The position numbers were made by a program, and so were the translations under genes. From positions 34,667 to 98,666 of the IMG/VR virus record IMGVR_UViG_3300045996_000470: a stretch of 64,000 nt of DNA. The stretch is one strand, 5' to 3'. Of this stretch, positions 10,839-44,575 are shown piece after piece. Source of the stretch: a virus (lineage: Duplodnaviria > Heunggongvirae > Uroviricota > Caudoviricetes). How positions within the stretch are numbered: the stretch's first letter is position 1; the number at the start of each line of letters is the position of its first letter. The notes under the pieces are model-generated. The model saw only the letters and a list, made by a program, of their open reading frames with translations. It did not search any database and was not told the origin of the DNA.

Positions 10839-10841
10839 AAG

Positions 10842-10871: not shown

Positions 10872-10913
10872 TCTAAACTGAGACGATATTAAAATTCAGG
10901 AGAAACATATAAT

Positions 10914-12328: not shown

Positions 12329-13024
12329 ATGGCACAAAAAGATTTAATAGGGCAGGTATTTGGAAACCTTACGGTTACTAAAGAAACTATCTATAGAAAG
12401 TATAAACAAGTTGTATGGGAATGTAAATGTGATTGTGGTAATATACATTTAGTTCCTCGTAATTCCTTGTGTAATGGAGATACAAAATCTTGTGGATGTT
12501 TAAAAACCAAAAACTTGTTAGGACGTAGTTTTGGGGAATGGAAGGTTTTATCTAAAATAAATCAGCGTAGTTTACAGGGAAAAATACTTTGGTATTGTAA
12601 ATGTAGCTGTGGAAATACTTCTACTTTAAGTACTAATCAACTAACTTCTGGAAAAACTTCAAGTTGCCAGAAAGGTATTCACAGTTCTTTGTACAGACAT
12701 GGAAAATCTAAAACTAAAGATTATAATAAATTAGTGGAAGGAAAAAGAAGAGCCAATAAAAAACACAACTTAACAAATTCCATTACTGTTAAAGAATTAA
12801 GAGATAGGATTGAATTTTTTGGAAATACTTGTGTATATTGCCAGAAAAATCCACACCAACATTTAGACCACATCATTCCTTTATCTAAAGGAGGGGCTCA
12901 TTCTATAAAAAATTTGGCTCCATCTTGTGCAAAATGTAATCTTAGTAAAGCAAGCAAATTACTCTTCGTTGAGTGGAATCCCGCAAATCCGCACCCTGTA
13001 ATGGAGGAGTTATATGGCAGCTAA
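12329..13024 (+). CDS. HNH endonuclease (homing-endonuclease-like) inserted between the chaperone region and the tape measure gene
   Basis: 231 aa; several CxxC pairs; HNH core HLDHIIPLSKGGAHSIKNLAPSCAKCNLSK. Confidence 0.75.
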   Translation: MAQKDLIGQVFGNLTVTKETIYRKYKQVVWECKCDCGNIHLVPRNSLCNGDTKSCGCLKTKNLLGRSFGEWKVLSKINQRSLQGKILWYCKCSCGNTSTLSTNQLTSGKTSSCQKGIHSSLYRHGKSKTKDYNKLVEGKRRANKKHNLTNSITVKELRDRIEFFGNTCVYCQKNPHQHLDHIIPLSKGGAHSIKNLAPSCAKCNLSKASKLLFVEWNPANPHPVMEELYGS

Positions 13025-16000
13025 AGAACAAGTTATAAGCGTCAGTATGACCCTTAATACCAAGGGCTTCAGCGACGGTCTCGTGCTCACCGATAAACAA
13101 GCAAAAAGTTTTGGAAAAAGTATAGCCAATGCTCTTACCATTGACCCCAAATCCTCAATCAATGCCCTTAAATCTATAGGGGTAGAGAAAGATAAACTAA
13201 TCAAAAATTTCCAACTACTTAATAAGGTAATTAAAGATTCCTTATTGATATCTCCTTCTCAATCCAAGGCAATGAATGATAAAATCAAGGAACTTGGTAA
13301 GAATCTTGATGGTCTAAAAACTAAGTCCTTAGAAACGGCTAAGGCTATGAATAACATCAGGTTTAATGTTGGAGATACAAACAAGAAAATTAAATCTGTT
13401 CAGACTGCTTTAGAAAATCTAAGGAAAGCAGCTACGGCTGTTGGTACTGTGAGCGTTGGAGCTACTGGAGGAACTAGAGGAACGGGGACTACAAGCACCA
13501 GAACAACGGGAGAGACTCCTGCACAAGCTGCGGCTAGACGGGCATCTATACCCGTTAGTCGGCAGGGAGACGAATTTAAGGTTTTAACTCCTCAAGAGAG
13601 AGCACAAGAACAATCAATAAGGGCTGCGCTAGACAAGAGGATGCAAGAACAGAGGGATAAAATCTGGTCAGAGGGTAACAAAAAGATTGCATCCGGCACC
13701 ACCAAAGTCTTTACTGATATGGGTTCATCTGCTTCCAAGGGATTTGCTGACAAGTTCAGAGAACTTAGCAGCCATATGGAGAAAATAGGAAAGCAATCTA
13801 GAAATAAATTTTCGTCTCTTTTCGGTGCTAATTTCTTTGCAGATTTGGCGTCTAATGCAGTACAGAGCTTTGCTAGACAATTAACAGAACTAGGAAAAGA
13901 TACTATCCTTTACGCCGCAAGAACAGATGAGTTGGGAGTCGCCTTGACTTCTTTGGCTAGAGTTAATAATATCGCTACTGAAACCATTGACCAACAAGAG
14001 CAGTCCATTAAAAGATTAAATATTACAACCCAAGATGCTAGAGAAACTTTGGCTAGATTCGTAAACGTGGGTTTTGACCTAAACAAAGCTGCCCCGCTTG
14101 CTAGGGTTGCACAGGACTTGGGTGTTATCACTGGTCTGTCTACCTCAGAAGAGTTAGATAAGTTGGTAGTCGCTATTCAAACTCTACAGTCTCGTAATCT
14201 AAGAACTGCCGGAGTCTTCCTTACAGTTGATGAGGTTCTAGACAAATTATCTGCTACAACAGGTAGAGCTAGAGATTCTTTCTCCACATTAGAGAAGCAG
14301 GAAGCTGTTCTAAATGCTGTTATGACTTATGGTACTAAGGTAGCTGGAACTTATGAAGCTGCTATGGACACTGCTTCTAAGAGAATTCGTTCCTTGGAGC
14401 GTGAGGCTCGTGAAGCACAAAACGCTTTAGGAGAACAATTTCAGCCTGCTTTACTTGCAGGAGTCAAAGCAGTAAGTTTCTTGTTAAATCAGATTAAAGA
14501 TTTTCCCGGTGCTTTTACAGCAGCCCTTCAAACCATAGGTTTATTTTCAGCAGCTCTTATTCTGTTGAACAGTCAGATTATTCCTAGTTTGGTAAGCGGT
14601 GTAATATCTGTTGGTACTGCTATGCTTACTACAGCTAGTAATACCGGTATTCGTGGGTCTGCACAAAGACGAGCTAATGAGGAGATGTTGAGGGGCATTA
14701 AACTGGATATTGAGATGGCTGCCGCCGCAGAGAAGACAGCTAGGGCTAATGCTACCGCTGCTACTAGTGCTATTAACAGGGCTGCATTTGAAAAGCAAGC
14801 TAATAATGCCCTTGCCAAGCAAGCTGAAAAGGAGAGGATGCTTACTGAAACAAGGGTATCTTCGCTTAGTGGAAAGATTTCTGGTGTCTTAGGGACTATT
14901 GGACTCATTGGTGCTGCTGTTTCAACTGTATTCACAGTTGCCACTTTAATAACGGAAAAGCTAAATCAACCTCTACCATTGATTAAACAGGACATTGGGG
15001 CTATTCAAAAGAGTGCAGAAGAAACTGCCACACTTCAGAGAACTTACAATGAATTACAGAACAATACCATTCTTCTTAAAGATGCTGAGTTGACTTTACA
15101 TAAAAGCATCGGCGTAGAAAATAGGGCGTCTTTGATTTTAGCTGAAAAAGAAACAGACGAATATAGAAAGAGGATAGCTTATCAAGACGTTATTCAAAGA
15201 CAAATTGATAGTAACAACCAGAGAAGAAATAGCGAAGTTGCTGCTTCTGCTCAAAATATTATAAATCAATTCAGAAATTTTAGTAAAGAAAGTGATGCTG
15301 CGCAGAAAATAGCCGTACAATATGAGGACATACAGAAGAGACTTAATGCGGTTAAAGAACTTAGAAAAACTAATCCTCAGGCTGTGGGTCTAGAAGATGA
15401 GAGAGCTTTGAATCTTCAGCTTGAAACTATTCTTCCTCAGCAAATAGAACAAATTAAAAAAGCTAATGAAGCTGCTGCTGAATTCTTTAATACTTTAAAG
15501 GATGGGCAGCAGGTTGCCCTAGCCTACGGCTTAACACTGGACGAACTTTTAGAAGTCAGACTATCTGATAGTTTTGCCGCTAATTCTGAAGAGTTAGCCA
15601 AGTTTAATGCCGAAGTTAGAAAGTTCAAACAGCTACAGTTGGTTGATATTTTAAAGCAGATAGAAAAAACATCTCTTACTCCAGAGGAGAGAATAGGTCA
15701 ACTGTCTAAGAGCTTTCAAAAACAGTATAAGGAACAAATAGACCAACTTAATATACAAAGAACCGACCTTTTCAATAAAATGAAGGATAATGAGGCGACT
15801 CAGGAAGAGTTGGAAGCATTTAACAGACAGACGGAGAAGGCTAATCTTAATTTTCCTAAAGCATTTGCGCAAGCTTATGGTAAATCTAATGAAAACCAGA
15901 AAGCATTCTTTAGTACTTTGTCTCAAGGCATTACTCAGCTTGAAACAATAAGTGGAAAGACCCTTAGTTATAGTGAGATAACTAAGGAGTTGGATAAAAC

Positions 16001-19000
16001 TGTTGCACATGCTATAGAGACCGATAAGGCTATGGCTGAAGCTATCACTGAACAAGGAGTTTCCTACGAGTTTCTTATTAAGTTCACTGAAGAGTACATC
16101 ACTGCTTTGCCTAAATTACAGCAAGCTATAAGAGAAGCCAGCTTAGAGATAGATGCCTTCGTCGGAGAGAGTGCGGAGAAAAGGGGACTTTCTTTCGAGT
16201 TAGAAAGTAAAAGAGAAACCTTACAAACCTTGAAAAGCATCAGTAGGCTTCAATTTGAATTGGGGGCTAAACAGTCAGATTTGACTCCTTATAAAAATAA
16301 TATCCAAGCTGCACAAAGACTGGAAGCATCTCTTAAGAGACAGAAGAAACTTCAGGACGAAATCAACGAAGCTAAGGATGCTCAACTAATAGTTGAGAAT
16401 GAGATTGCGGTGTTGAGGGCAAGGCTTGCAATTCCCCTTGTTAATACTGAACTAATGGCTCAGAAGGCTATTCTTGAAACTATCCAAGAGAGGAGAGAAG
16501 AGGAGCAAAAGCTTACCACCGACATAGCTTTAGAAATTACCAAAAGGAAAAGATTTGGCGTGGACAGCGGGAGACTTGTAGCTGAAGCCTTTCTGGAAGC
16601 CCAAAGAGGAGAAAACGAAGCTGTTTCTGGAGCTACTAAGAGTTTTCTTAATGCACAACTACAGCAAGGTAATAATGCTATCTTCACTAACAATCCTCTT
16701 ATAAGAGAAGCTATCAAACAGTCTGAGAAAATGGCACAGATAGAAGCTAAAGGAGGATTACAGGTTGCTAAAATAACAGAGGGTAATGACATTGCTAAGA
16801 ATACACAATCCTTAGTTAAGCAAACTTCTGATAACGTAGTTTCTTCTGGAGAAAAGATAGTGTCCGCTATTCAACAGGCTCCTGCATTTACGGGAGGAGT
16901 AGGGAGCGGGGGATTCCCAACTTTTGGTAATGTTGGTTCAACTCCTAATGCCTTTGCCGCTACTTTCAAAGCTAAGATGCAGAGTCTGGGAATGCAACCC
17001 GGCGCTATTACGTGGATGCTGGCAAATCTCAAGAGAGAAAGTGGATTCGACTTAGGCACTACTCAACGCATTTCTGTAGACCCCATTAATAATGGCAGTA
17101 GAAATGCAGGAGCTTTCCAATGGAATTCTTCTGGAAGATTACAGCAGTATCAGAGATTTTTAGGAAGCAGAGGATTAAATGTTTCTGTTGCCAGAGCCGT
17201 AGACCAAGCCGACTTTATGGGGCAGGAGCTACAAGGTGGTTACAATAGGTTCCTAAGGATTATGCAAACTCCGGGACTAAGTTCAGAGCAATACTATAAA
17301 GCTGCCGCAGGCTATATTGGATTTTCTGATAGTCCAACCAAGAGAGGGCCGGGAGGAAGAACTTGGAGAGAAATCAATAGGAGTAAAAATTTCCAATTTG
17401 CTAGACAACTGGGAGGTATTCCTGACTTTAGCCCTACGGCAGGAGTAATTGCAGAAGCTGTTAAGACAACTCCGTCTACTTCTAAAATTTTGGGTCTGGA
17501 CATCATTAAGAAGACCTATGGGCTGGATATTGCCGACCTTCAAGAACTCACTGGAGGAAAAGGAGGCGCACTCAAAGGTCCAGCAGGGCAAATTCATAGC
17601 ATGTTACTTCAGGCGGCAACACTTAAAGATGCGTTTGGAAAAGTAACCGGAACTCCTAATGATTTTGCTGCGGCCCAATCTTTTACTGATGATATGACAT
17701 CCAGAGTAAAGGCCGTAGATATCAGTAAGGCCACCAGAGCTATAAGGTGGTTTAACCAAAATTCTATTAGAGCCTTAGAAGCCGCAGAGGAATGGGAGAA
17801 GTATGAAACTGAGATTTCCGAAGAAAGAGAGTTTGGTGCCGATAGAAGAAGAACCCAAGACACTATTAACGGACTTAGGCTAATGGCTTTGAATGACCCT
17901 AGAAGTACAGGCTATAGGCAGGCTTTTGGAGAAGCTCGTTCTGCTCGTGTTGCCTCTCAAGTTGACGAGACGAAGGAGCTAATTAAACTTCAAGAGGAAG
18001 GAATTTTTAGAATCTTCCAAGCAGAAGCTTATCGAGCTAGACAAAAGAAAAGATTTGATAGAGACCAAATAATTGCACTTCAGGCTACAGAAGATGCTGA
18101 AACAGACTTAGCTATAAAGAGAGAAGCATATGCAGATAAGAATTCTCTTTATTACAGGAACATTATAAGAAATGAGAGACTTGTAAGAGCGCAGGCTAAG
18201 CAAACTCTAAAAGAAGAGACCGACGCTATCAGAAGATATAATAGAGAGTACCTAAAGAGTGAAGATAACAGAACCCGTATCTTTGAGGAGGCTACTAGAG
18301 ATAGGGAAGCTGCGTATAGGGACTTAGTTGAGTCTATGATTAAGATGGACGAGGCTTATGGTAAGCAAAATATATTTCTTCAGGAGGAATTAGCTGCCCG
18401 TCAAAAAGAGATTAGAAATTCTCAGGAAAGAGAATTTGCGGATACCCGTTTGAGACAACTTGATGCTGAGAACGAATACATTCGTAAGACTACAGACCCA
18501 TTTAATTCTGCTGAGTTTAGAACCAGAGGTCTAGAGAAAATAAATTCAATGATGACGGACAGCACTACGCTAATGTCTAACCTTTTCTCTGATACCTTTG
18601 ATGGAATCTCCCAAGGATTTGGAAGTCTTATTGATAAAATGACCGAGAGAATGGGAATCTTTGGTGGAGCTATCGGTAATCTTTTGAAGGGTATCACTAA
18701 TAATATTTTCGGGGCATTATTTAAGGATGTTTTAGGAGGAATCGCTCCTACTGACCCTGCCGTAGCAGAAGCTATGGGAGGAAAATCTGCTGCGGACAAC
18801 GTTAGCAAGCTTTCGGATGCAGCGGCGACTAGTTATGCTGCACAAATGACTTATAGCAATGCGTTTGTTACGGCTTCAGCGGATATGGCTACAAATGTAT
18901 ACAATCTTAGTGGCTCTATAGCTAACGCTAGTGCGACTATTATTGCAGTAGCGGGAACTTTGGCACAAACTGCTTCTAATATCATCAACGCTCTTCCATC

Positions 19001-20474
19001 CGGTGGGGGAGGTGGAGCAGGAGGAGTCGGTTCTGGCGGAGGCATCAACGGTCTAATAAGAAGTGCCACAACAACTGGTATGAATCAAGTTGCACAGCAA
19101 CAGGCTGCGCTTCCCGGTATTCCTAATATAGCAGACATTGCAACTATTGTTCACGGTCCCGGCTCTAGTGGTATTATTGGTAGTGGTGCGCAGGCAATTC
19201 TTGGTAGAGTTCCTCAGGCAGGAGGAGCTTTAGGGGTACTTCAAGGAGCAGGACAATCTGCTCTTGGTGGAATCCTAGGTGGTCAAGGACTTAAGGCTAT
19301 TGGTGGTTCTCTTCTTGCGGGAGCGCCTATGTTAGGAGCAGGACTTGGCGGATTGCTTGGCGGACAAAGTGCGGGCGGTCAGATGCTTGGACAACTTGGT
19401 GGGCTTCTCGGAGGAGTTGCTGCCATTGGTGCGTTAGGTGCATTAGGTTTTGGAGGAGCTACCGCAGCAGGCTTATTCGGTACTAGCCTAGTTGCTAGCG
19501 GAGGATTAACTACGGTTGGAGGAGTTGGAGGATTATTCGGAGCAGGGGGAGCTTTGGCAGGTATAGGAAGTTTGTTCGGAGGTGTAGGAGGATTCTTCGG
19601 GGCTACCGGAGCAGCCGCTACAGCACTTGGAGCAACCGTTATTCTTGCGCCTATCGCTGCTGCGTTGCTTATTGGTGGAGCGTTGCTTGCACGTAATAAG
19701 AGAAGAAGAGAAGAAGAAAAAATTCGTAATCAGGCTATGCTCGACGCACTCCCTGCCCTTCAGGAATTGCTTAAGGGAGTAAAAACTGATAAAATAGATG
19801 GTACAGAAGCGCTAACTAGAGCCGATGAAATTCGTAAGCAATACGTTGACCAAATGAGTCAGCTTAAGGACAAGAAAACTAGGAACATCGCCCTTAAGGA
19901 TGTTAGTAGACTTGATACAGTTATTGCTGAAATCAAGATAGCTGCTAAGAATCAATCTATCAGAAGAGAATTAGATGAAAGAATGGTTCCGACTTACGCA
20001 ACAGGTGGAGTTGGGTCAGGAGTAATCCGAATTTCTAGGGGAGAGGATTTGTTTGTCCCTCACGCAGCAGGAAGTTTCTCCGGTGCTGATATTGCAGCGG
20101 GCGGAATTCCCGGCTATGCAACTGGTGGAATGTACACCGGAATGAAGTTGAAAGGAAGTTTCGACGGAAGAGATAATATTTTAGCTCGTGTTCCTAAGGG
20201 AACAGTAATCGCAAATCCTCGCCAGTCAACCAAGATAAGGTCGGCAAGGGGATATGCAACAGGTGGGGTTGCGTTTGGTCGTGGAAGTTCTTCTACTGCT
20301 CAGGGAGCTTACATGATGCAACCCCCTTCAGTAACAGCAATTATAGTATTCAGCACTAAGGAAGCTGAGGAACTTGGACGCCAGATTCCAAACTCTGTTA
20401 TTGTAGGCAAAGTAAGACAACACGTTAGGGCTACCGGAACTACCGGACTGGCAGGAGATATCTTTAACGTATAA
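13014..20474 (+). CDS. tail tape measure protein
   Basis: 2486 aa, by far the largest ORF in the tail block; extended coiled-coil content; internal lysozyme/transglycosylase-like segment (~16950-17280: LANLKRESGFDLGTT...AGAFQWNSSGRLQQYQRFL); Gly-rich and hydrophobic segment near the C-terminus (~19000-19700). Confidence 0.8.
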   Translation: MAAKEQVISVSMTLNTKGFSDGLVLTDKQAKSFGKSIANALTIDPKSSINALKSIGVEKDKLIKNFQLLNKVIKDSLLISPSQSKAMNDKIKELGKNLDGLKTKSLETAKAMNNIRFNVGDTNKKIKSVQTALENLRKAATAVGTVSVGATGGTRGTGTTSTRTTGETPAQAAARRASIPVSRQGDEFKVLTPQERAQEQSIRAALDKRMQEQRDKIWSEGNKKIASGTTKVFTDMGSSASKGFADKFRELSSHMEKIGKQSRNKFSSLFGANFFADLASNAVQSFARQLTELGKDTILYAARTDELGVALTSLARVNNIATETIDQQEQSIKRLNITTQDARETLARFVNVGFDLNKAAPLARVAQDLGVITGLSTSEELDKLVVAIQTLQSRNLRTAGVFLTVDEVLDKLSATTGRARDSFSTLEKQEAVLNAVMTYGTKVAGTYEAAMDTASKRIRSLEREAREAQNALGEQFQPALLAGVKAVSFLLNQIKDFPGAFTAALQTIGLFSAALILLNSQIIPSLVSGVISVGTAMLTTASNTGIRGSAQRRANEEMLRGIKLDIEMAAAAEKTARANATAATSAINRAAFEKQANNALAKQAEKERMLTETRVSSLSGKISGVLGTIGLIGAAVSTVFTVATLITEKLNQPLPLIKQDIGAIQKSAEETATLQRTYNELQNNTILLKDAELTLHKSIGVENRASLILAEKETDEYRKRIAYQDVIQRQIDSNNQRRNSEVAASAQNIINQFRNFSKESDAAQKIAVQYEDIQKRLNAVKELRKTNPQAVGLEDERALNLQLETILPQQIEQIKKANEAAAEFFNTLKDGQQVALAYGLTLDELLEVRLSDSFAANSEELAKFNAEVRKFKQLQLVDILKQIEKTSLTPEERIGQLSKSFQKQYKEQIDQLNIQRTDLFNKMKDNEATQEELEAFNRQTEKANLNFPKAFAQAYGKSNENQKAFFSTLSQGITQLETISGKTLSYSEITKELDKTVAHAIETDKAMAEAITEQGVSYEFLIKFTEEYITALPKLQQAIREASLEIDAFVGESAEKRGLSFELESKRETLQTLKSISRLQFELGAKQSDLTPYKNNIQAAQRLEASLKRQKKLQDEINEAKDAQLIVENEIAVLRARLAIPLVNTELMAQKAILETIQERREEEQKLTTDIALEITKRKRFGVDSGRLVAEAFLEAQRGENEAVSGATKSFLNAQLQQGNNAIFTNNPLIREAIKQSEKMAQIEAKGGLQVAKITEGNDIAKNTQSLVKQTSDNVVSSGEKIVSAIQQAPAFTGGVGSGGFPTFGNVGSTPNAFAATFKAKMQSLGMQPGAITWMLANLKRESGFDLGTTQRISVDPINNGSRNAGAFQWNSSGRLQQYQRFLGSRGLNVSVARAVDQADFMGQELQGGYNRFLRIMQTPGLSSEQYYKAAAGYIGFSDSPTKRGPGGRTWREINRSKNFQFARQLGGIPDFSPTAGVIAEAVKTTPSTSKILGLDIIKKTYGLDIADLQELTGGKGGALKGPAGQIHSMLLQAATLKDAFGKVTGTPNDFAAAQSFTDDMTSRVKAVDISKATRAIRWFNQNSIRALEAAEEWEKYETEISEEREFGADRRRTQDTINGLRLMALNDPRSTGYRQAFGEARSARVASQVDETKELIKLQEEGIFRIFQAEAYRARQKKRFDRDQIIALQATEDAETDLAIKREAYADKNSLYYRNIIRNERLVRAQAKQTLKEETDAIRRYNREYLKSEDNRTRIFEEATRDREAAYRDLVESMIKMDEAYGKQNIFLQEELAARQKEIRNSQEREFADTRLRQLDAENEYIRKTTDPFNSAEFRTRGLEKINSMMTDSTTLMSNLFSDTFDGISQGFGSLIDKMTERMGIFGGAIGNLLKGITNNIFGALFKDVLGGIAPTDPAVAEAMGGKSAADNVSKLSDAAATSYAAQMTYSNAFVTASADMATNVYNLSGSIANASATIIAVAGTLAQTASNIINALPSGGGGGAGGVGSGGGINGLIRSATTTGMNQVAQQQAALPGIPNIADIATIVHGPGSSGIIGSGAQAILGRVPQAGGALGVLQGAGQSALGGILGGQGLKAIGGSLLAGAPMLGAGLGGLLGGQSAGGQMLGQLGGLLGGVAAIGALGALGFGGATAAGLFGTSLVASGGLTTVGGVGGLFGAGGALAGIGSLFGGVGGFFGATGAAATALGATVILAPIAAALLIGGALLARNKRRREEEKIRNQAMLDALPALQELLKGVKTDKIDGTEALTRADEIRKQYVDQMSQLKDKKTRNIALKDVSRLDTVIAEIKIAAKNQSIRRELDERMVPTYATGGVGSGVIRISRGEDLFVPHAAGSFSGADIAAGGIPGYATGGMYTGMKLKGSFDGRDNILARVPKGTVIANPRQSTKIRSARGYATGGVAFGRGSSSTAQGAYMMQPPSVTAIIVFSTKEAEELGRQIPNSVIVGKVRQHVRATGTTGLAGDIFNV

Positions 20475-29799: not shown

Positions 29800-31020
29800 C
29801 TATTCGTCCTCTATGAGTACATCTGAGACCCCACAACGGTTTCGAGCTAGTTCCCAGAGTCCGGAATGTACAACTCCTTGCATTTGAAGGTCATACAGTT
29901 CCTCTAGAACCTCTCCCATCTTAGGGGAAGGCTCCATACCATACTGTATCAGATACTTGCCCGTAACCACTGGCTTAATAGGCTCTTCTTCAATTCTAAG
30001 CCTATCAATCGTCTCAGCAAACCTAGTTGCAAACGCCTTAGCCGTTGGGAAACAGCTTACGACTCTAGCCATTAGCTTCATAGAAATCTTCTGAGAAAGC
30101 TTATGGAAATCATAGTCCGTTTCTAGTCCACCGAAAGGCATATTGTCAAGGATAGCCTCGACATGCTTTCGTACAGGATAGCCGTTTACAGAGTTCACTC
30201 CTAGTTCATCCAAAAGCGTATACTCCGAACCGTATGCAAACATTGTCAGGATAACCGTTAAACGTTCCTCGTACGACAGACCCTCTACATTGAAAACACT
30301 GTTAAACAGTCCGTCTGCAAGGTGTTCATTAAATCTAAAGCTAGGAAATAGTTTTTCCACAATCCCTAGACTTTCAAGCTTAGTAACACCAAACGGAAGG
30401 TTTGGAGACTTCGTAAGAAGCTTTTCCATTTCTCCCCAAATTCTTTCTTTGGGAAGGTCAGACAAATCCGTTTCGTATGCCAGCATTTGCGTACGCGAGT
30501 CTACTTCAAACCCAAACCTAGAAGCAAACTGTGCGCAACGAAGAACTCGAAGAGAATCCTCTTGGAAAGCCTTGTCTGAGACAGCACGAAGGATACCATT
30601 TTGAAGGTCAATAACCCCACCCCACGGGTCAACAAGTTCATCCGTAAGCGGGTCTTTCATAATAGCGTTAATCGTAAAGTCTCGCCTTGAGCAAGCCTCT
30701 TCGAAAGACATATGAGGGTCACCCTCAACAGTAAAACCTTTGTGACCTACGCCCGTTTTCTTTTCACGCCTCGGAAGAGATACGTCAATATCCTGTCCAA
30801 GTTTATAGACAGCAAAGGAAGCACCAACTTCGTCAACCTTACCAAAAGTTCCTAGCACTTCCCGCAGACGTTCAGGCTCAAGACCATAGATTTCTATGTC
30901 AATGTCTTTCGAAGCTATCCCTAGAATCTCGTCGCGTACACATCCACCAACGAGCATAGCTCGACCGCCTGCCTCCCGCACTTGTTCTGCTAGGTCTGTA
31001 ATAAGACTGTTGTGTTTCAT
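29800..31020 (-). CDS. cca: tRNA nucleotidyltransferase (CCA-adding enzyme, class II)
   Basis: 406 aa; head motif GRAMLVGGCVRDEILGIASKDIDIEIYG (GGxVRD...DxD) characteristic of CCA-adding enzymes/poly(A) polymerases; its ATG overlaps the TGA of the upstream minimal-NTase gene (ATGA). Confidence 0.7.
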   Translation of the reverse strand: MKHNSLITDLAEQVREAGGRAMLVGGCVRDEILGIASKDIDIEIYGLEPERLREVLGTFGKVDEVGASFAVYKLGQDIDVSLPRREKKTGVGHKGFTVEGDPHMSFEEACSRRDFTINAIMKDPLTDELVDPWGGVIDLQNGILRAVSDKAFQEDSLRVLRCAQFASRFGFEVDSRTQMLAYETDLSDLPKERIWGEMEKLLTKSPNLPFGVTKLESLGIVEKLFPSFRFNEHLADGLFNSVFNVEGLSYEERLTVILTMFAYGSEYTLLDELGVNSVNGYPVRKHVEAILDNMPFGGLETDYDFHKLSQKISMKLMARVVSCFPTAKAFATRFAETIDRLRIEEEPIKPVVTGKYLIQYGMEPSPKMGEVLEELYDLQMQGVVHSGLWELARNRCGVSDVLIEDE

Positions 31021-31319
31021 ATGCTACCGTGCCTTAAGTGTGAGTAAACTTCCTCAAAGGAATGTAACCACCTATATTCTACTCTCAATCCCTCTATCTC
31101 TACGTGTCCTATGTAATCCTCTAAGCCTACTTCTACTAAATCTGCTTTGCCTATGTCTACTACGAAACAATCCAAATCTGAATCCTTTCTCCATCCACCG
31201 GTAATACGAGAACCAAACAACTTGATGTTATCTTCCGAACAATCCAAAGTTTTTGCTATCTTGCTTTTAATTTGTTTTGGAGAGTACCCATTTAAAGATT
31301 CCATCCTTCTATTGTACAC
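31017..31319 (-). CDS. minimal nucleotidyltransferase (MNT / Pol-beta-like NTase domain protein)
   Basis: 100 aa; motif LFGSRITGGWRKDSDLDCFVV (GS...DxD); translationally coupled (ATGA) to the CCA-adding enzyme gene. Confidence 0.5.
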   Translation of the reverse strand: MYNRRMESLNGYSPKQIKSKIAKTLDCSEDNIKLFGSRITGGWRKDSDLDCFVVDIGKADLVEVGLEDYIGHVEIEGLRVEYRWLHSFEEVYSHLRHGSI

Positions 31320-33513: not shown

Positions 33514-33541
33514 AGTATACAGGATTTTGTAGAAAAGTCAA
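33514..33541 (-). promoter_or_regulatory. leaderless sigma70-type promoter (copy 1 of a family)
   Basis: - strand TTGACT, 16 nt, TATACT, 7 nt, ATG. Confidence 0.5.
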
Positions 33542-33783
33542 GGGAGGAAGTATTTTAAGGTGACAAAGAACGCTCCTGCGATTGTAAAGGCTACAGCCCA
33601 TTGAAAAAACAACCGTATCCAGCCTTTGATTCTTTCCCAGCGTGGCTCTTCTGTGCCTTCTACTTCAATGTAATGCTCAAACATAGGTTCGGGGCTATTT
33701 CTAGCCCCTCTCGCCCCCGCAACCACCAACAGTTTATAGATACGTTGGCTATCTATCTGTGTAATCTGACTTACCCTTATCAA
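33538..33783 (-). CDS. small membrane protein
   Basis: 81 aa; C-terminal transmembrane segment WAVAFTIAGAFFVTL. Confidence 0.3.
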   Translation of the reverse strand: MIRVSQITQIDSQRIYKLLVVAGARGARNSPEPMFEHYIEVEGTEEPRWERIKGWIRLFFQWAVAFTIAGAFFVTLKYFLP

Positions 33784-34879
33784 ATAGATAAGTATTAGTC
33801 AGGTACTTCAGAATAACTCGACCTACTTTATGGTCGTATCTTTCCTTAATAGGCTTAATAACAACGCCTTCCATCGGATGCTCTGGACTCAATAGAGATT
33901 CTTTGGAAATCTTCTCAACAGAGTTTATGATATTGTCGTAGTCATAGCTCATGTTGTTAAACGTAGGAACTGTTTCTACTCCGTGCAGTCTGCAAAGAGT
34001 CAAGAACATTTCTTGGTCTGCGTATTTCCCGTCAACCAATAAATCAAATGCTCTGAAACCAATTCCATTCTTGATTCCGTAATTATATTTCTTCTGGACA
34101 ATGCCAAAGACTTCTCCAAAAAGAATTACTTGCTTTGCATCTTGTCCTATTGTTAGAAGTAAATTACGAATAGAAGGCAGTGTCAGAGGATACCAATAAG
34201 TATTCCTCTCCATATCCTTATCCTCAGGTTTCTTCCTACGAAGCCCGTGAGAACCTGCCATAAACTCTCCCTCGATAAGCCCTACTCGGCAGTTAGTTCC
34301 GTGCAGCTTCTCTGTGATTACAACTTCCTCTCCCTCTTCTAGGACATTAGGATAGTTCCTAAGGTTTTCGATAGAAGTGTACTTGACAAATAAGGGATGG
34401 TCTTCCTCTGCATCACCTGCTGTTGCTCTCATTGCAGGTTCATACTTTAGAATGCCTAACAACTCAGCCAAATTATCTCCAAGCTGCAATAAGTTTATAT
34501 CAGTAGAAGCTTTTCCATTAGTGCTCTCACTTACCAATTGACTTACCACATCCCTAGGGATGGTCGTACCAAAGCTAGGCTCACCACGCAGCTTTGCCTG
34601 ACGAACACGAAGCATTGTCTCTCCGTTCTCGTTAGTAACAAACGTACCGTCAGGATTTTTCACTGACTGTAGGTGCTGTTTGATTTCTAGAATATCGGCA
34701 AGCTTCTCTGTAATCAAAGAGTCAGGGGTAATATAAACTACCCTCTCTCCCTCTTTGTAAAGGCCTTTACCGCAAACAATCTGCCATCCGTTAATATCGC
34801 AAATATCTAATCTATCTGCATCAGGATGATTCCTTAAATTTGTAACTTCTGCGACCTGCGCCACTACGTTGCTTGGCAT
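33749..34879 (-). CDS. RNA ligase (Rnl2-like family, KxHGxN motif) with N-terminal tRNA-binding OB (Myf/EMAP-like) domain
   Basis: 376 aa; N-terminus VAEVTNLRNHPDADRLDICDINGWQIVCGKGLYKEGERVVYITPDS matches the tRNA_bind OB fold; nucleotidyltransferase motif I ITEKLHGTNCRV (compare T4 Rnl2 EKIHGTN). Confidence 0.55.
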   Translation of the reverse strand: MPSNVVAQVAEVTNLRNHPDADRLDICDINGWQIVCGKGLYKEGERVVYITPDSLITEKLADILEIKQHLQSVKNPDGTFVTNENGETMLRVRQAKLRGEPSFGTTIPRDVVSQLVSESTNGKASTDINLLQLGDNLAELLGILKYEPAMRATAGDAEEDHPLFVKYTSIENLRNYPNVLEEGEEVVITEKLHGTNCRVGLIEGEFMAGSHGLRRKKPEDKDMERNTYWYPLTLPSIRNLLLTIGQDAKQVILFGEVFGIVQKKYNYGIKNGIGFRAFDLLVDGKYADQEMFLTLCRLHGVETVPTFNNMSYDYDNIINSVEKISKESLLSPEHPMEGVVIKPIKERYDHKVGRVILKYLTNTYLFDKGKSDYTDR

Positions 34880-34891
34880 TATCTTTTCTTC

Positions 34892-35272
34892 CTACTCGTA
34901 AACTGTAATCACCTTTTCTTTAGGGGTAACTTCCTTGCCCCACTCTTCAAAATCTACTCCGTGGTAAGACGAATACCAACCGTCTGTCTTAATGTAAATG
35001 TCGTACTTAGGAAAGAACTTAACTGAGTACCACTCGTCGCCTTGTCCTTCGCCTCCCTTTTGGGCTACTTCATCCCAACCGCCAAGCTCTTCCTTGGCTT
35101 TATTGTAAAGTTCCTCGGCTTCCTCAGAAGTCATTTCTCTCTCTTCGCCAGTTTCAGGGTCATATATCCACTCACCGTCGCCGTAGTCAGGGTCGTCGTG
35201 GGCAAATACAGATAGAGGGAGTCCTGATTTTTTAAGTTTATCTAGAATTTCTTCACCTGTTAGCTTATTCAT
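34892..35272 (-). CDS. hypothetical acidic protein, paralog of 35265-35576
   Basis: 126 aa; shared C-terminal module YDIYIKTDGWYSSYHGVDFEEWGKEVTPKEKVITVYE. Confidence 0.35.
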   Translation of the reverse strand: MNKLTGEEILDKLKKSGLPLSVFAHDDPDYGDGEWIYDPETGEEREMTSEEAEELYNKAKEELGGWDEVAQKGGEGQGDEWYSVKFFPKYDIYIKTDGWYSSYHGVDFEEWGKEVTPKEKVITVYE

Positions 35273-35576
35273 AAATAGTTACCTCAATTTTCTTTGGTCT
35301 TACTTCTTGTAGTGTGTATGTCTCTAGGGCATAGCCAGCACCGTGAGAACCGCTGCGAACCTTGCCTTTAATGTAAACATCGTAGTCTGCAAAGTACCAC
35401 ACGCCCACTGTGTCGTCCCACTCTCCCTCTTGGGTCTTCTGGATGCAGACAAAATTACCTAGCTTGTCTATGTACTTAGCGCTCATACCAAGAAGATTCC
35501 AATCTTCCCAACATTCATTCTCGTCGTAGCCCGGACGAGACTCTTCTAGCACCTCTATAATTTCCTCTGCTGTCAT
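35265..35576 (-). CDS. hypothetical protein, paralog of 34892-35272
   Basis: 103 aa; C-terminus YDVYIKGKVRSGSHGAGYALETYTLQEVRPKKIEVTIYE. Confidence 0.35.
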   Translation of the reverse strand: MTAEEIIEVLEESRPGYDENECWEDWNLLGMSAKYIDKLGNFVCIQKTQEGEWDDTVGVWYFADYDVYIKGKVRSGSHGAGYALETYTLQEVRPKKIEVTIYE

Positions 35577-36349
35577 AACTTCTCCTGAATTTTTTTTACA
35601 AAATTGTACTCAGCCCTCATTAAATCTGGGTACCTTTCTATAGCCCACAGTGCCACATAAAGCGGGGCGTGTGAGATAAGGTACTTCTTAAACATCCTCA
35701 AATAGGCACGCTTGTATGGAAGCTTTCTAAATCTTTCGAAAGCCATCACCATAACTTCCTCACGGATTAAATTCTCTTTCGCCTCATCGGGAGCATTCTC
35801 AAACTTTTGTTCATCAATCTCGACCTCTGCCCCGTCTGCTAACATAGTAGTGTAAGTGGGAGTAGGATTGATAAGAGTGTGAAGATGGTCATGGTCAAAT
35901 TCCTTCAACGCATTGTCAAAGAAATCTGCTGCTGACATTTTCAAATCAGAGCGTGTATTCTTTTCGTGGTACTTGTTCCAATATTCGTACAACTCATAGA
36001 ATACTTCCTTCTGAATCTTCGCTCTCTTCTTCAAAAGAAATTGAATGTCCCACATATGCTTGTCCCAATCAATGTCCCAAAAAATGTGAGACGCCTTAAG
36101 AGTAAGCATCAAATCAGGGTCAAGGACTTCTGACTTGGCGTATTTTAAGATAACAGGATTCTCTAGGAATTCGACTGTAGGAATCGGTTTAAATTCAGTG
36201 CGTTTAAAATCAGCTAGAATCTTTTGAAGCTGTATCTTATCGTCAAGGTTTTCAATAGCATAGTCCAAATCCTTAGGGACTCTATTAAAGTCTGGAAAGT
36301 GGTGCTTAATTGCCGTTGAGCCTATGATTACTGTATTAACCAAACGCAT
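35573..36349 (-). CDS. predicted nucleotidyltransferase-fold protein
   Basis: ~258 aa from the ATG at 36349 (the ORF track starts at a GTG at 36364); N-terminus VIIGSTAIKHHFPDFNRVPKDLDYAI has the GS...DxD pattern of Pol-beta-superfamily NTases; first gene of the operon that ends with the tRNA-binding RNA ligase. Confidence 0.35.
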   Translation of the reverse strand: MRLVNTVIIGSTAIKHHFPDFNRVPKDLDYAIENLDDKIQLQKILADFKRTEFKPIPTVEFLENPVILKYAKSEVLDPDLMLTLKASHIFWDIDWDKHMWDIQFLLKKRAKIQKEVFYELYEYWNKYHEKNTRSDLKMSAADFFDNALKEFDHDHLHTLINPTPTYTTMLADGAEVEIDEQKFENAPDEAKENLIREEVMVMAFERFRKLPYKRAYLRMFKKYLISHAPLYVALWAIERYPDLMRAEYNFVKKIQEKL

Positions 36350-36355
36350 AGGAAT

Positions 36356-36383
36356 ATGATACACTATTTTGTAGAATTGTCAA
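36356..36383 (-). promoter_or_regulatory. leaderless sigma70-type promoter (copy 2)
   Basis: - strand TTGACA, 16 nt, TATCAT, 6 nt, ATG (36349). Confidence 0.5.
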
Positions 36384-36487
36384 TAGGGTTGGAGGCACGT
36401 AAAGGATTCGAACCAATGAGTTTTCTTGAAGCTTTTATTTCGAAATTATTACTTCCTACTCTGTCCCTCTTTTCCATCTAGCGTTAC

Positions 36488-36782: not shown

Positions 36783-37169
36783 TTAACTAGAAGCTAGAGG
36801 AAACCTATTCTTAATAGTCCTCAAAGCCAAATCCAATGGCGTCTTACCCTCTGGATATTTCTTAGTGTTCCAAGTCGTTGCTCCAATAAGGAAACAAATA
36901 CTCGTAAGACAGTTGCCCGTATCAGGCTCGTGAAACTTAGTCACAGGCACTTTAAGTTTTCTCAACTCGTCGTAAGCTTCCTGCAACTGCGTGTCACTAA
37001 ACGCTTCAAGAAGGATAATCGTCTTATCTTTTCTTGCCCAACGCTGCCACTCAGGGGTATCGTAATACTTCAATGCGTATTCCGTACCTGCGTGGTCACT
37101 CTGGATGCCCTGCTGTCTGCCCGACAAGTGCCTCAATGTAATTGTAATTCTTCTCTGCTCAGTCGTCAT
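36783..37169 (-). CDS. peptidyl-tRNA hydrolase, PTH2-like
   Basis: 128 aa; ITITLRHLSGRQQGIQSDHAG aligns with PTH2 [22 protein letters not shown], and EWQRWARKDKTIILLEAFSDTQLQEAYDELRKLKVPVTKFHEPDTGN...LIG aligns with the PTH2 QW...PKVVVKA...L...GL...IQDAGRT...LGIG region. Confidence 0.5.
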   Translation of the reverse strand: MTTEQRRITITLRHLSGRQQGIQSDHAGTEYALKYYDTPEWQRWARKDKTIILLEAFSDTQLQEAYDELRKLKVPVTKFHEPDTGNCLTSICFLIGATTWNTKKYPEGKTPLDLALRTIKNRFPLASS

Positions 37170-37646: not shown

Positions 37647-38675
37647 TTAATTGGCATCCTCCGAAACCATCTTAAAGACTCTTGTAACTTCTGGACGAAT
37701 TAACTTCCAGATATTATCTGAATAGTCTTTGCCATCTAACATATGAAAAAGAATAGAAGGATACTTATAGTTTTGATAATGCAAAGCATTAGTCTTTCTA
37801 TCACCCAAGTCAATAAAGAAAATCTTTGCTGTCAATTCTATTTCGTTATACTTCTCTTGCAACTCAGTCCTAACTTCTTCTACGAAATCGTAGAACTCGT
37901 CAGGAGTTCCTTCAAGAAGTTCCTCAAGAGTACCGTTCCTCATTGCTTCCCAAACAGTCTTTTCAGAGACGCCTGTAATCAAACGGTGAAGTCTCTTGTA
38001 CTCCTCTAACTTAATCTTGACACGTTCGCCATTAGAATATCTTAGTACAAACCCCTCAAGATTAGGCTCCTCGTAAGAAAGAATCTCTTCTAAAGAGTCA
38101 AAGGAATAAACCTTTGGAGTACGAAACCCGTACATCTTTGCAAGCTTCTTGTAATAAACAGCAGTAAACTCCTGCCCATGCTGCCAAACAGATAACAATA
38201 CTACGTCAGAGAAGTCGTAATTAACTACGACACGGTTCTCAGGATAAATAACTTCAAAGATAAACGTGTATCCTTCAAGCGGTAAGAAATCTCCAAGCAA
38301 CTCCTTTCCTCTCTTAGCTTGGTCTGATACAAATGAACCACGAGTCGCTGTTACCAACTGTCCCTGATACATCACAGCAACAAGCATAGACCCGTCCATC
38401 TTTTCTTCGACTACGAAATCACCTTCTGGCAACTTGCCATCAAGCTGTTCGTAAGAAAAGAACTTCTTAAAAGGACGAGCAACAATATTCCCCTCACCGT
38501 CAGCTATTAAGCCTCGGCAGTTAAGGGTAACATCATTCCAGACCCAAGCAAACTGAGTGTTAGCAGTGTAGTTGTACACCCACAAGTCTAACTCAGGGTG
38601 CTTCTCACGCTTAACCATCTTGTCTGTCAAGGCTTGGTCTAATGCTTCTTGTGTAAATAAATCAGTTAATTTCAT
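37647..38675 (-). CDS. ATP-dependent RNA ligase (Rnl1-like; nucleotidyltransferase motif I KMDGS)
   Basis: 342 aa; motif I VVEEKMDGSMLVAV (compare T4 Rnl1 KEDGSL); size and context fit an RNA ligase rather than the DNA ligase, which is found elsewhere. Confidence 0.45.
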   Translation of the reverse strand: MKLTDLFTQEALDQALTDKMVKREKHPELDLWVYNYTANTQFAWVWNDVTLNCRGLIADGEGNIVARPFKKFFSYEQLDGKLPEGDFVVEEKMDGSMLVAVMYQGQLVTATRGSFVSDQAKRGKELLGDFLPLEGYTFIFEVIYPENRVVVNYDFSDVVLLSVWQHGQEFTAVYYKKLAKMYGFRTPKVYSFDSLEEILSYEEPNLEGFVLRYSNGERVKIKLEEYKRLHRLITGVSEKTVWEAMRNGTLEELLEGTPDEFYDFVEEVRTELQEKYNEIELTAKIFFIDLGDRKTNALHYQNYKYPSILFHMLDGKDYSDNIWKLIRPEVTRVFKMVSEDAN

Positions 38676-41811: not shown

Positions 41812-42037
41812 TGTGTATATACCCCAGTGTATGGTGCGGAGCTAAATAGTTGTACTCTAGTACCCATTTCAATCCCAATATTTCAATCATAGATTCAATA
41901 CAAATTGTTTTATATCTATCTCTTACCTTTTCGTAATCCTTGTGTTCCGGATTCAACTTTTGTAAGACAGTAAAGGCATTGTTCCACGTACTGTTTAACC
42001 TATCTATTCTATCTTTTATTTGTTCTTCATTTTTCAT
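41804..42037 (-). CDS. hypothetical protein
   Basis: 77 aa. Confidence 0.3.
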   Translation of the reverse strand: MKNEEQIKDRIDRLNSTWNNAFTVLQKLNPEHKDYEKVRDRYKTICIESMIEILGLKWVLEYNYLAPHHTLGYIHNE

Positions 42038-42555
42038 GGAAGTAAAATGTTTTTAATCATTTGAATGCCAGTATCCAAGTCCTGCGCCTCCCACCCGACA
42101 CTTTGCGTAATCAGTCCGTGGCGATGGATGTTGCCGTCATTAGTAACTAGTACGCAAGGTTTTCGATAGGCATAGCCCCAAGCAACTTCCATTACTGTAC
42201 CGATAGAGACTCGTTTAACATCTAAAAGATTAAAGAGTATGGCATCAGCCGTCTGGCAATCCCAGTGGTCACGATTAAGAATTTGTGACAGGGGAGTAAC
42301 TGTTTCTCCTTTATGGTGTTCAGGCATCCCTGCCATAGCGTTAAGATATCCTTTCGCCCTCATAGGGGAATAAGCTGTAATATTACTAGGCTTTATTAGC
42401 TTATTCCCTGTTTGTGGGTGAGTCAAGGCGCTGCCGTCCACATCATAGAGGTGAGTAAAGGCTAATTGCTCTTTGGCATATTCTCTCCAATTAGTTGCGC
42501 CATGAAATGTTTGCCCTGAGATTGGGCCTGCTAAGTAAACTTTATAGTATTTCAT
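42034..42555 (-). CDS. nucleoside 2-deoxyribosyltransferase-like protein
   Basis: 173 aa; KVYLAGPISG near the N-terminus and SIGTVMEVAWGYAYRKPCVLV near the C-terminus match the NDT/DNPH1(Rcl) family signature. Confidence 0.6.
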   Translation of the reverse strand: MKYYKVYLAGPISGQTFHGATNWREYAKEQLAFTHLYDVDGSALTHPQTGNKLIKPSNITAYSPMRAKGYLNAMAGMPEHHKGETVTPLSQILNRDHWDCQTADAILFNLLDVKRVSIGTVMEVAWGYAYRKPCVLVTNDGNIHRHGLITQSVGWEAQDLDTGIQMIKNILLP

Positions 42556-43461: not shown

Positions 43462-43698
43462 CTATGCATAGCCTCTAAAAATAGAGGCTGTTAACCATTG
43501 CAATGCGCTTACTATATCTTCATCGCTTGCAGTTTCTAGCCATTCATCTTCCCAAACCCTTAAGTTTTGGTCTCTGAGAATGCTCCAACGGCTCATTCCT
43601 TTAGGGGGACGAGTAGTTAAACCAAATTCGTCCCGCCAATTTTTAATCCTACCTATGACTATTTCTCTCATATTAAAACTCGTGATAAGGGTTACCAA
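43462..43698 (-). CDS. hypothetical protein
   Basis: 78 aa. Confidence 0.3.
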   Translation of the reverse strand: MVTLITSFNMREIVIGRIKNWRDEFGLTTRPPKGMSRWSILRDQNLRVWEDEWLETASDEDIVSALQWLTASIFRGYA

Positions 43699-44575
43699 AC
43701 TGCATCAGAGGGAGTCCCTCTTCTGCCCACAGTTCCCTACACACCTGAGGTCTATCGTCAACAACAAGGTACACAAGGTATTTGTTCTTAATATGCTCCT
43801 CATAAAGCTCTCTTTTGATAATAGAATCCTTCCTAGAATCCCCTGCTTTTCTCATATACAGGTGGTCGTAAGCAATTCCATGTGCTTTCAACCAATTCTC
43901 GGTAGGAGTTCTACCCAAATCTTCCTTACGGCCTGACAGGCAGATAAGAGTTACGTCCTCTCTGTCAGCGTACATCTTAGCGATATCCACCACCGGCAAG
44001 TTAGGGAGGTCTTCGTGACACCTAGTCTCGTCAAATGGTGAACGCCCGTTCATCAGCGCAAGAGTACCATCAAGGTCAAAAATGACTGCCTTCGGTTTAT
44101 CGCCGTAGTAGTAATTGCAATCTGTGTAAAGCTTCTTCGGAGGAAGAAACTCTGCCTTCTGTTTCATAATAACCTTCTTCCAAAAGTCCTTACCTTCTGG
44201 ACGATTGGCACAACGCTCGATACAAACATCTATCGGAACGTCTGAAAAATCCTTTACCTCAAAATCATACTGCTCCCTGTACTTCGGGAACACAAGCGCC
44301 TTCACATTCTTTATGTGAAGCTTGTTGAGATTCGTGTCAGCTACGATAACTGACTGTCCCTTCTCAAGAGCCTTCATAATAAGTTCGTTACGCTTCTCAA
44401 CAACTTTAGATTCCTTCACTCTCTTTTCGTTGTCGCCAACAACAGCACCCATTGATGCACGAATATCATCCTTGCATACGATTACTGTGTTAGGATTAGC
44501 AGACACGTACTCATTAGCCCAAGTAGTTTTGCCTGAGCCTGAAAGTCCGTATGTCATTATCACCTTATTCTTCAT
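43673..44575 (-). CDS. pnk: polynucleotide kinase-phosphatase (T4 Pnk-like: 5'-kinase + 3'-phosphatase)
   Basis: 300 aa (T4 Pnkp is 301 aa); N-terminal P-loop GLSGSGKTTWANEY; C-terminal HAD phosphatase motif I VIFDLDGTLA plus a downstream DDR. Confidence 0.8.
   Translation of the reverse strand: MKNKVIMTYGLSGSGKTTWANEYVSANPNTVIVCKDDIRASMGAVVGDNEKRVKESKVVEKRNELIMKALEKGQSVIVADTNLNKLHIKNVKALVFPKYREQYDFEVKDFSDVPIDVCIERCANRPEGKDFWKKVIMKQKAEFLPPKKLYTDCNYYYGDKPKAVIFDLDGTLALMNGRSPFDETRCHEDLPNLPVVDIAKMYADREDVTLICLSGRKEDLGRTPTENWLKAHGIAYDHLYMRKAGDSRKDSIIKRELYEEHIKNKYLVYLVVDDRPQVCRELWAEEGLPLMQFGNPYHEF

Follow-up and report, generated by a model that had tools for sequence, protein, structure and literature searches.

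The window analysed here is a stretch of 64,000 nucleotides from the IMG/VR virus record IMGVR_UViG_3300045996_000470 (positions 34,667 to 98,666 of that record), and its own numbering is used throughout. At 33749-36383 on the minus strand it carries four genes, designated A, B, C and D, which we consider likely, with some room for doubt, to form one early and probably leaderless operon composed of two independent modules within an RNA-repair island: a cassette of a predicted nucleotidyltransferase with two small paralogous partners (A-B-C) and an RNA ligase (D). The partnership of A with B/C-family genes is near-obligate and almost virus-only, and the ligase is a variable neighbour of this cassette. 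The operon comprises the following features.

36356-36383, minus strand: sigma-70-type promoter, TTGACA at 36383-36378, a 16-nucleotide spacer and TATCAT at 36361-36356
35573-36349, minus strand: gene A, 258 residues, predicted Pol-beta-fold nucleotidyltransferase with an N-terminal DUF7277 and a C-terminal helical DUF7275 domain (Pfam)
35265-35576, minus strand: gene B, 103 residues, divergent first-position paralogue, start overlapping the gene A stop (ATGA)
34892-35272, minus strand: gene C, 126 residues, conserved last-position partner with N-terminal helices followed by an antiparallel sheet
33749-34879, minus strand: gene D, 376 residues, ATP-dependent RNA ligase assigned to the Rnl5 family (TIGR02306)

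A near-obligate cassette with a variable ligase neighbour

Analysis of IMG/VR loci retrieved with an alignment of gene A revealed a B/C-family gene directly downstream of the enzyme in 45 of 47 cases, and reciprocally an A homologue was located just upstream in 43 of the 44 loci retrieved with a C alignment, the single exception being a sequence that ends 300 nucleotides before C. Clustering of the neighbouring open reading frames (ORFs) recovered 94 B/C-family members across 45 loci, and every other neighbour family, among them ribonucleotide reductase, helicase, primase, homing endonucleases, metallophosphoesterase and AAA_24, was present in at most 10 of the 47 A loci. The modal layout, A followed by two copies (31/45 loci), is that of the window, while the number of partner copies ranges from one to five. 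The first small ORF, a divergent copy, begins at or overlaps the A stop codon in 37 of 44 loci. The Gly-rich motif occurs in only 3 of 38 first-position copies; last-position copies carry the GGEGQG loop in 33 of 38 cases and the ...VYE C-terminus in 34 of 38.

The same pairing was found in cultured phages, namely in Streptomyces phage Annadreamy (gp196-198), in Gordonia phage Yvonnetastic (gp16-18, beside a tRNA cluster) and in Vibrio phage KVP40, with the small gene ahead of the enzyme. RB69 ORF134c matches DUF7277 plus DUF7275 strongly and has no detectable C-type neighbour. Overall, the cassette was seen in T4-like phages, actinophages and many uncultured phages, and the enzyme also in giant eukaryotic viruses: Sylvanvirus (A0A3G5AJ90) and Satyrvirus (A0A3G5AE53) encode DUF7275 proteins of 508-571 residues, so the enzyme family is not confined to phages. 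Across the representative genomes of 185,579 species of bacteria and archaea, gene A was detected in three contigs of metagenome-assembled genomes only and, as it also gave no PADLOC match at E ≤ 0.1, its candidacy as a bacterial defence or toxin-antitoxin gene was rejected.

Rnl5 genes, on the other hand, were located within 6 kb of A in no more than 3 of the 47 loci, which look like one phage; in L023-L025 the Rnl5 gene stands 240 nucleotides past C. No RNA ligase is encoded within 6 kb in the other 44 loci. As the A-B/C pairing is near-obligate and Rnl5 is near A in so few loci, we concluded that the operon consists of two adjacent modules, and the tie between the ligase and the nucleotidyltransferase with its paralogues, which had been proposed from the sequence of the window (hereafter the original prediction), did not hold.

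Gene A displays the features of the Pol-beta superfamily (hG[GS], [DE]x[DE], a third carboxylate and the nucleotidyltransferase fold). In agreement with the earlier proposal of a nucleotidyltransferase fold with an acidic triad, G10-S11, D27xD29 and E60 are invariant across 30 homologues, and an AlphaFold model with a predicted local distance difference test score of 91.4 places them on the expected strand-helix-strand-strand core. Further residues invariant in this set are K85, H88, H98, R133-S134, H153-D154, H157, E197-E198, E205-R206 and H227. A reading of the His/Asp cluster as an HD phosphohydrolase gave no profile match and is kept as an idea. While gene A itself had no AbiEii (PF08843) match in Pfam at E ≤ 1 and its family profile retrieved nothing from the PDB sequences at E ≤ 10, sub-threshold AbiEii matches were obtained for 15 of the 30 homologues (14-18 bits, cut-off 22.5; best E 1e-4), all collinear with the model both around motif I and at profile positions 137-220. 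We therefore take gene A to be a putative, distantly related viral branch of the DUF1814 (AbiEii/MenT) superfamily. AbiEii/MenT (DUF1814) enzymes add nucleotides to tRNA 3' ends. A structure search of BFVD with gene A returned DUF7275 proteins only, and a search of the available library of papers found no mention of DUF7277 or DUF7275.

B and C are ancient paralogues and are translationally coupled to gene A. Their paralogy, already noticed from the shared motifs (YDVYIK...EVTIYE and YDIYIK...VITVYE in the pair), was borne out by BLASTP (37% identity over 60 residues, E 2e-6) and by the match of gene B to a hidden Markov model of the C family (E 7e-12). The sheet of gene C bears GGEGQGDEWYSVKFF...YDIYIK...SSYHG...VITVYE immediately before the stop codon; gene B is devoid of the GGEGQG loop. 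No match to gene C was found in Pfam, NCBIfam or PADLOC, a Pfam scan with the whole C family yielded noise only, and the partners had no fold match. An exhaustive profile search gathered 1836 cluster representatives, all of them small (74-234 residues), including several head-to-tail double modules and no fusion to any other domain. Within this family Tyr and Ser residues are invariant or nearly so, and the extreme C-terminus (...ITVYE-stop) is conserved.

Gene D belongs over its full length, as judged from its profile matches, to the Rnl5/DraRnl/NgrRnl family. It passed the cut-off of the equivalog model TIGR02306 (RNA_lig_DRB0094; 160.8 bits against 151.15) over residues 8-365, corresponding to profile positions 4-339 of 341; DRB0094 is the Deinococcus enzyme DraRnl. 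In contrast, the Rnl2 model TIGR02307 gave 29.8 bits against a cut-off of 197, in the nucleotidyltransferase core only. Pfam matches to PF21189 (PHA02142 OB-fold; residues 7-108, E 1e-8) and PF09414 (RNA_ligase; residues 184-359, E 4e-25) agree with an OB domain spanning approximately residues 7-150 and a C-terminal nucleotidyltransferase domain, with the last residue of the protein 18 past K358. A profile built from 20 homologues matched NgrRnl (5COT) with E 6e-31 over residues 8-328, covering NgrRnl residues 10-334 of 340, whereas the match to T4 Rnl2 (PDB 2HVQ, E 5e-6) involved the common core only. By alignment, K191 (motif I, TEKLHGTN), E256 (motif III), E337 (motif IV) and K358 (motif V), together with T168, D53 and K145, correspond to NgrRnl K170, E227, E312, K326, T145, D53 and K121, and all seven are invariant or near-invariant in the 20 homologues. 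The family is widespread, with 1534 homologues at E ≤ 1e-10, many of them named 'DRB0094 family', and members in 279 GenBank phage records, most of which carry the annotation 'RNA ligase'.

The original prediction had described gene D as an Rnl2-type ligase carrying a tRNA-binding OB fold. The first half of this description stands in so far as gene D matches the RNA_ligase profile and consists of an N-terminal OB domain joined to an ATP-dependent RNA ligase; Rnl2 membership was rejected because TIGR02307 remains far below its cut-off and the Rnl2 C-terminal domain is missing. With regard to the OB domain, the match to tRNA_bind (PF01588) was confined to residues 8-43 and, at 14.1 bits (E 0.05), fell short of the cut-off of 27, although a distant likeness to pheT (E 6e-5), YtpR (E 1e-3) and PheRS-beta (PDB 4p71, E 4e-4) was reproducible. 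For DraRnl, the combination of an adenylyltransferase domain and an N-terminal module similar to the PheRS B2 OB fold has already been described, and a DraRnl homologue in Aeromonas phage 44RR2.8t has been known since 2007 (PMC1807946); the family has since been named Rnl5 and the structure of NgrRnl solved (PMC7261155). The fusion presented as a different solution to tRNA-directed repair is thus the defining Rnl5 architecture, on record since 2004-2007, and gene D is another phage member (PMC1807946, PMC7261155). Targeting of tRNA by the OB domain has been reported for no Rnl5 enzyme; its main role is in lysine adenylylation via contacts to the pyrophosphate leaving group, with the NgrRnl OB domain touching the ATP gamma-phosphate (PMC7261155).

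These results bear on whether the four genes could constitute a single tRNA-repair pathway, in which the OB domain targets tRNA, the nucleotidyltransferase restores ends in the manner of RlaP and B and C are accessory proteins. We regard this as unlikely. A single promoter and the tight packing of the four genes would fit such a pathway, as would the loci in which Rnl5 follows C at a short distance (L023-L025), the related locus L052 with A-B-C 3.4 kb upstream of Rnl5, and a small RNA ligase gene three genes upstream of A in Annadreamy; yet in the 47 loci ligase proximity is limited to one lineage, compared with an A-B/C linkage of about 96-98%. The likeness of the OB domain to the PheRS-beta B2 and tRNA_bind fold is set against its documented part in step-1 adenylylation (PMC7261155), and the Pnkp pathway of this phage has a separate Rnl1-like ligase. 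RlaP nucleotidyltransferases adjacent to ligases do add one or two nucleotides to damaged RNA 3' ends (PMC12776372), but gene A is not an RlaP enzyme: it had no PF10127 match, which T4 NrdC.11 itself does have (E 5e-12), hhalign against T4 NrdC.11 gave a probability of 0.2%, and no RlaP structure appeared among the BFVD matches.

Promoter layout and limits of the operon

The four collinear minus-strand ORFs lie in the interval 33749-36383, with stop and start codons overlapping at A/B and at B/C and the gene D start 12 nucleotides past the gene C stop. Shine-Dalgarno-like motifs are present for gene B (AGGAG), gene C (GAGG) and gene D (AGGAAG). The GTG codon at 36364, given as the start of gene A in the ORF list, falls within the -10 box, and the start is the ATG at 36349, as also called by JGI for an identical metagenome protein (P0001). 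This ATG follows the -10 box at a distance of 6 nucleotides (TTGACA-N16-TATCAT-ATTCCT-ATG), so that gene A combines a -10 box within 5-7 nucleotides of its start codon with the absence of a Shine-Dalgarno motif, which is the layout of a leaderless gene. The genes, the promoter and the quoted motifs of the predicted four-gene operon were accordingly all recovered.

A near-identical copy of the promoter, with 2 mismatches, lies at 45901, and a repeat search of the window placed seven promoter copies in one group. There are 13 instances of the pattern TTGAC[AT]-N16-17-TAnnnT-N5-7-ATG on the minus strand and none on the plus strand, the mean in 300 shuffles being 0.09. The start codons behind it are the following.

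63189, 59865, 58929, 54008, 52756, 50739, 45866, 41052, 39204, 37377, 36349, 33506 and 31304, all minus strand: ATG codons behind the promoter pattern

Every promoter copy opens a real ORF, those of the primase-helicase, DNA ligase and gene A among them, and in L052 the orthologue of gene A, 63% identical at the protein level, is preceded by the same arrangement, TTGACT-N16-TATAAT-N6-ATG. The recurrence of this layout 13 times on one strand and its absence from the other make leaderless transcription credible, and a leaderless first gene followed by Shine-Dalgarno-dependent internal genes is our best reading, with the transcription start placed from the spacing. All 13 promoters are situated on the early-gene strand, 5-7 nucleotides from the ATG, which suggests a systematic use of leaderless operon starts in this phage. 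Many of them also have a C-rich run (CCCC) directly before the -35 box.

The downstream end of the operon is marked by three elements.

33691-33708, minus strand: GC-rich hairpin of 7 base pairs (GGGGCTA-gaaa-TAGCCCC), starting 41 nucleotides past the ligase stop
33538-33684, minus strand: candidate fifth operon gene of 48 residues with a hydrophobic C-terminus, called by JGI (L001 3391-3537, mapped)
33514-33541, minus strand: next promoter copy, TTGACT-N16-TATACT followed by the ATG at 33506, the downstream limit of the operon

A terminator scan found nothing convincing after the ligase gene; the hairpin has no T-run and, while not a canonical terminator, may be a 3'-end or stability element. 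The 48-residue ORF has no evident ribosome-binding site, and its end meets the -35 box of the next promoter.

Upstream of the gene A promoter, the sequence GGTTCGAATCC at 36404-36414 on the minus strand agrees exactly with the tRNA T-loop consensus, with TCCA 11 nucleotides later. It was rejected as a tRNA element, as there was no Rfam tRNA match, the predicted fold was not significant (z-score 0.44) and the string is not conserved in relatives. An 11-mer matching with up to one mismatch is expected in 54% of shuffled sequences, and the string is probably a chance occurrence or the decayed remnant of a tRNA 3' end.

An RNA-end-processing island and the possible role of the operon

The source phage is an uncultured, tailed phage with contigs of up to 121 kb, whose structural genes (portal, protease, capsid) are encoded on the plus strand and whose early and replication genes are encoded on the minus strand. 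No nucleotide similarity to GenBank phages was found. The major capsid protein (phrog_29, 4283-5428, plus strand) had no tblastn match in 50,697 GenBank phage records, and the lineage is therefore one without a cultured representative. In the vicinity of the operon, several further genes for the processing of RNA ends were identified.

37647-38675, minus strand: Rnl1 (T4 RnlA)-like ligase, Pfam RNA_lig_T4_1 E 5e-15, in the operon two promoters upstream
43673-44575, minus strand: T4-type Pnkp, phrog_505 E 1e-77, AAA_33 and HAD_PNKP E 1e-41
28796-31304, minus strand: putatively leaderless three-gene operon, promoter at 31338, consisting of the next three genes
31304-31017, minus strand: minimal NTP_transf_2 nucleotidyltransferase, 95 residues, weak MntA/ANT-like matches
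31020-29800, minus strand: class II CCA-adding/poly(A)-polymerase (PcnB)-family enzyme, head and RNA-binding domains only
29752-28796, minus strand: RNase T-family exonuclease, weak N-terminal SLOG (YAcAr) match
36783-37169, minus strand: PTH2-like protein of 128 residues, sub-threshold peptidyl-tRNA hydrolase PTH2 match (E 0.004)

The Pnkp gene named in the original prediction is thus real, whereas the Rnl1-like ligase had gone unmentioned there. The latter scored 62 bits with TIGR02308, under the cut-off, and its C-terminal region is unlike the T4 Rnl1 model; in anticodon-loop repair, Rnl1 is the enzyme with which Pnkp canonically works. The operon at 28796-31304 could provide a trim-and-rebuild set for tRNA 3' ends.

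Two relatives, whose gene A proteins are 63-65% identical to that of the window, have comparable islands. In L052 the order is A-B-C, five genes, Rnl5, CCA enzyme and RNase T. L053 encodes Pnkp, A with five small paralogues, Thg1, an Rnl1-like ligase, Mom and a PTH2-like protein; its nucleotidyltransferase and five tandem partner paralogues occupy 9001-11310, with the Thg1-like 3'-5' polymerase, the Rnl1-like ligase and the Mom-family gene farther downstream, and the PTH2-like gene, a similarly weak match within the RNA-repair island, lies at 17326-17721.

Elsewhere in the window, the structural module contains two very large ORFs (13014-20474, plus strand, 2486 residues; 21742-27726, plus strand, 1994 residues), and short tandem Ala/Glu/Pro-rich repeats (GAAGCAGCACCAGC...) are located just past the major capsid gene at 5728-5833 (plus strand). 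Among the early genes is one for a nucleoside 2-deoxyribosyltransferase-family protein (42034-42555, minus strand; Pfam E 4e-8).

We propose the following model for the two modules. Gene A would add nucleotides to RNA 3' ends, probably those of tRNA, and B and C may bind it as regulatory or specificity subunits, in parallel to the control of MenT by MenA. MenT enzymes are ruled by diverse, unrelated small antitoxins, which induce auto-phosphorylation of the active-site motif-I Ser/Thr (PMC11375011). Gene D would be adenylylated at K191 with the assistance of its OB domain and would seal 3'-OH/5'-PO4 nicks in base-paired RNA, the known Rnl5 substrates being duplex nicks with RNA as the 3'-OH strand (PMC7261155). 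The island as a whole may keep tRNA and other RNA functional in the face of host ribonuclease or tRNA-modifying defences: Pnkp would heal broken ends, the Rnl1-like enzyme close breaks in loops and Rnl5 close nicks in stems, while the exonuclease and the CCA enzyme would rebuild 3' ends. Since Pnkp and the Rnl1-like ligase already cover loop breaks, we infer that gene D extends repair to stem nicks. Directly ligatable 5'-P/3'-OH ends arise in tRNA stems that are cut by host nucleases of the Toprim type, for example P2 OLD, and T4 ligases can mend single nicks in tRNA stems (PMC12445682).

Several points weigh against this reading. The leaderless starts are deduced from spacing alone. A-B-C and D share a transcript here and lie close together in L052, so that some functional link between them is possible. 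In the wider set of loci, the cassette is accompanied by genes of replication and nucleotide metabolism and not by those of RNA repair; no more than 6 of the 47 loci have tRNA genes within 6 kb, and the window itself contains none. The physiological role of Rnl5 is, moreover, uncharted in the literature (PMC5397189). An enrichment of tRNA genes near the cassette was likewise considered and set aside as too weak for use.

As to the cassette itself, gene A may serve tRNA repair, the disabling of host tRNAs or AbiE-type counter-defence. One tentative possibility, to which we assign a lower probability than to the two-module operon, is that A-B-C is an undescribed, virus-specific three-component system, in which a tRNA-end nucleotidyltransferase from a viral branch of AbiEii/MenT depends on two differentiated paralogues with a novel small-protein fold for regulated tRNA 3'-end modification or nucleotidylation of a partner protein. 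Such a system might disable host tRNAs, or undo or pre-empt an AbiE/MenT-type host defence; alternatively, gene A might nucleotidylate B/C as a switch.

Rather improbable, in our estimation, is a toxin-antitoxin-like weapon, with A blocking host tRNAs by 3' extension for host shut-off or rival-phage exclusion and B/C acting as inhibitors or timers, for example by inducing auto-phosphorylation of Ser11. MenT toxins are the nearest solved structures and weak AbiEii matches recur in the family of gene A, but B and C are unrelated to AbiEi and MenA and belong to no Pfam family or matched fold. The overlap of the partner genes with the enzyme gene is reminiscent of toxin-antitoxin pairs, and in KVP40 the order is reversed; unlike bacterial toxin-antitoxin and Abi systems, however, the family is essentially virus-only and had no PADLOC match. 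The invariant G-S of gene A would be compatible with the motif-I Ser/Thr phosphorylation triggered by MenT antitoxins (PMC11375011), and the range of one to five partner copies suggests an arms race, whereas in most phages the cassette is found among early replication and repair genes.

Very improbable, finally, is an action of gene A on something other than RNA, either nucleotidylation of B/C in the style of GlnD-PII or MntA-HepT, or modification of a small molecule or signal as by ANT and Lnu, perhaps neutralising a host defence signal. The near-obligate pairing of an enzyme with small proteins, the conserved Tyr/Ser residues and the preserved ...ITVYE-stop terminus of the C family could be accommodated by the former, and gene A might have a second, metal-dependent site in the invariant His/Asp/Glu cluster of its helical domain. 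The parallel is purely analogical, though, and homology to GlnD, PII, HepT or MntA is absent; by fold and profile, the best matches are nucleotidyltransferases of RNA ends, and the RNA-repair context of this phage clade favours an RNA substrate.

Taken together, the observation underlying the original prediction was confirmed and its interpretation is supported in part, while the claim of a novel ligase fusion finds no support. The more interesting lead is the A-B-C cassette, an uncharacterised viral system whose proposed function draws on fold likeness and on the context of one clade. The DUF7277/DUF7275 nucleotidyltransferase, so far a Pfam 'domain of unknown function', appears to have an intact active site on a modelled MenT-like fold, and it is partnered almost invariably with a small-protein family lacking any database entry. 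If gene A does act on tRNA ends, it would be a viral counterpart of bacterial toxin and abortive-infection enzymes and a new player in the contest between host and phage over tRNA. In the phage clade, neighbouring, apparently leaderless operons encode an unusually full complement of RNA-end enzymes, joined by Thg1 in relatives, and as the physiological role of Rnl5 is still unsettled, the clade offers a good natural system for asking what Rnl5 does.

Comparison with known systems

Among characterised enzymes, gene D is closest to the Rnl5 ligases DraRnl and NgrRnl, with which it shares the N-terminal OB domain, the C-terminal nucleotidyltransferase domain, the lack of a C-terminal module, and conserved motifs I, III, IV and V and ATP-contacting OB residues; its activity, expected to be an ATP- and Mn2+-dependent sealing of duplex nicks between an RNA 3'-OH and a 5'-PO4 end, is predicted on this basis. 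Identity to the Rnl5 members of cultured phages is approximately 26-30%. Gene D differs from NgrRnl by an insertion of about 20-30 residues in the OB domain and linker, and its motif I reads KLHG, as in DraRnl, and not KLDG. With T4 Rnl2 it has in common the nucleotidyltransferase core and, by expectation, a similar biochemistry (sealing of nicks in duplex RNA), but Rnl2 has its own C-terminal domain, in place of which gene D has the N-terminal OB domain.

Gene A shares with MenT and AbiEii the Pol-beta motifs and a conserved Lys-containing helix (AbiEii profile positions 137-220), and the pairing of MenT/AbiEii with MenA/AbiEi, an enzyme next to the gene of a small cognate protein, resembles that of the cassette. 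It is distinguished from these systems by a similarity that stays below threshold, by its restriction to viruses and by typically two paralogous partners of a new family. Comparison with RlaP revealed a common organisation, with an N-terminal nucleotidyltransferase and a C-terminal helical domain in a phage protein of about 250-330 residues encoded beside RNA repair genes, and the addition of one or two nucleotides to damaged RNA 3' ends by RlaP is the kind of activity suggested for gene A. However, the two have no detectable homology, RlaP has no near-obligate small partner, and the ligase linkage of gene A is sporadic; a Pol-beta nucleotidyltransferase working beside phage RNA ligases has already been published in the form of RlaP (PMC7824862, PMC12776372). 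As for the Pnkp and Rnl1 repair system of T4, the phage has enzymes of both types within about 10 kb of the operon, in other operons, and the operon contributes a further ligase from another family, comparable to the presence of Rnl2 beside Rnl1 in T4.

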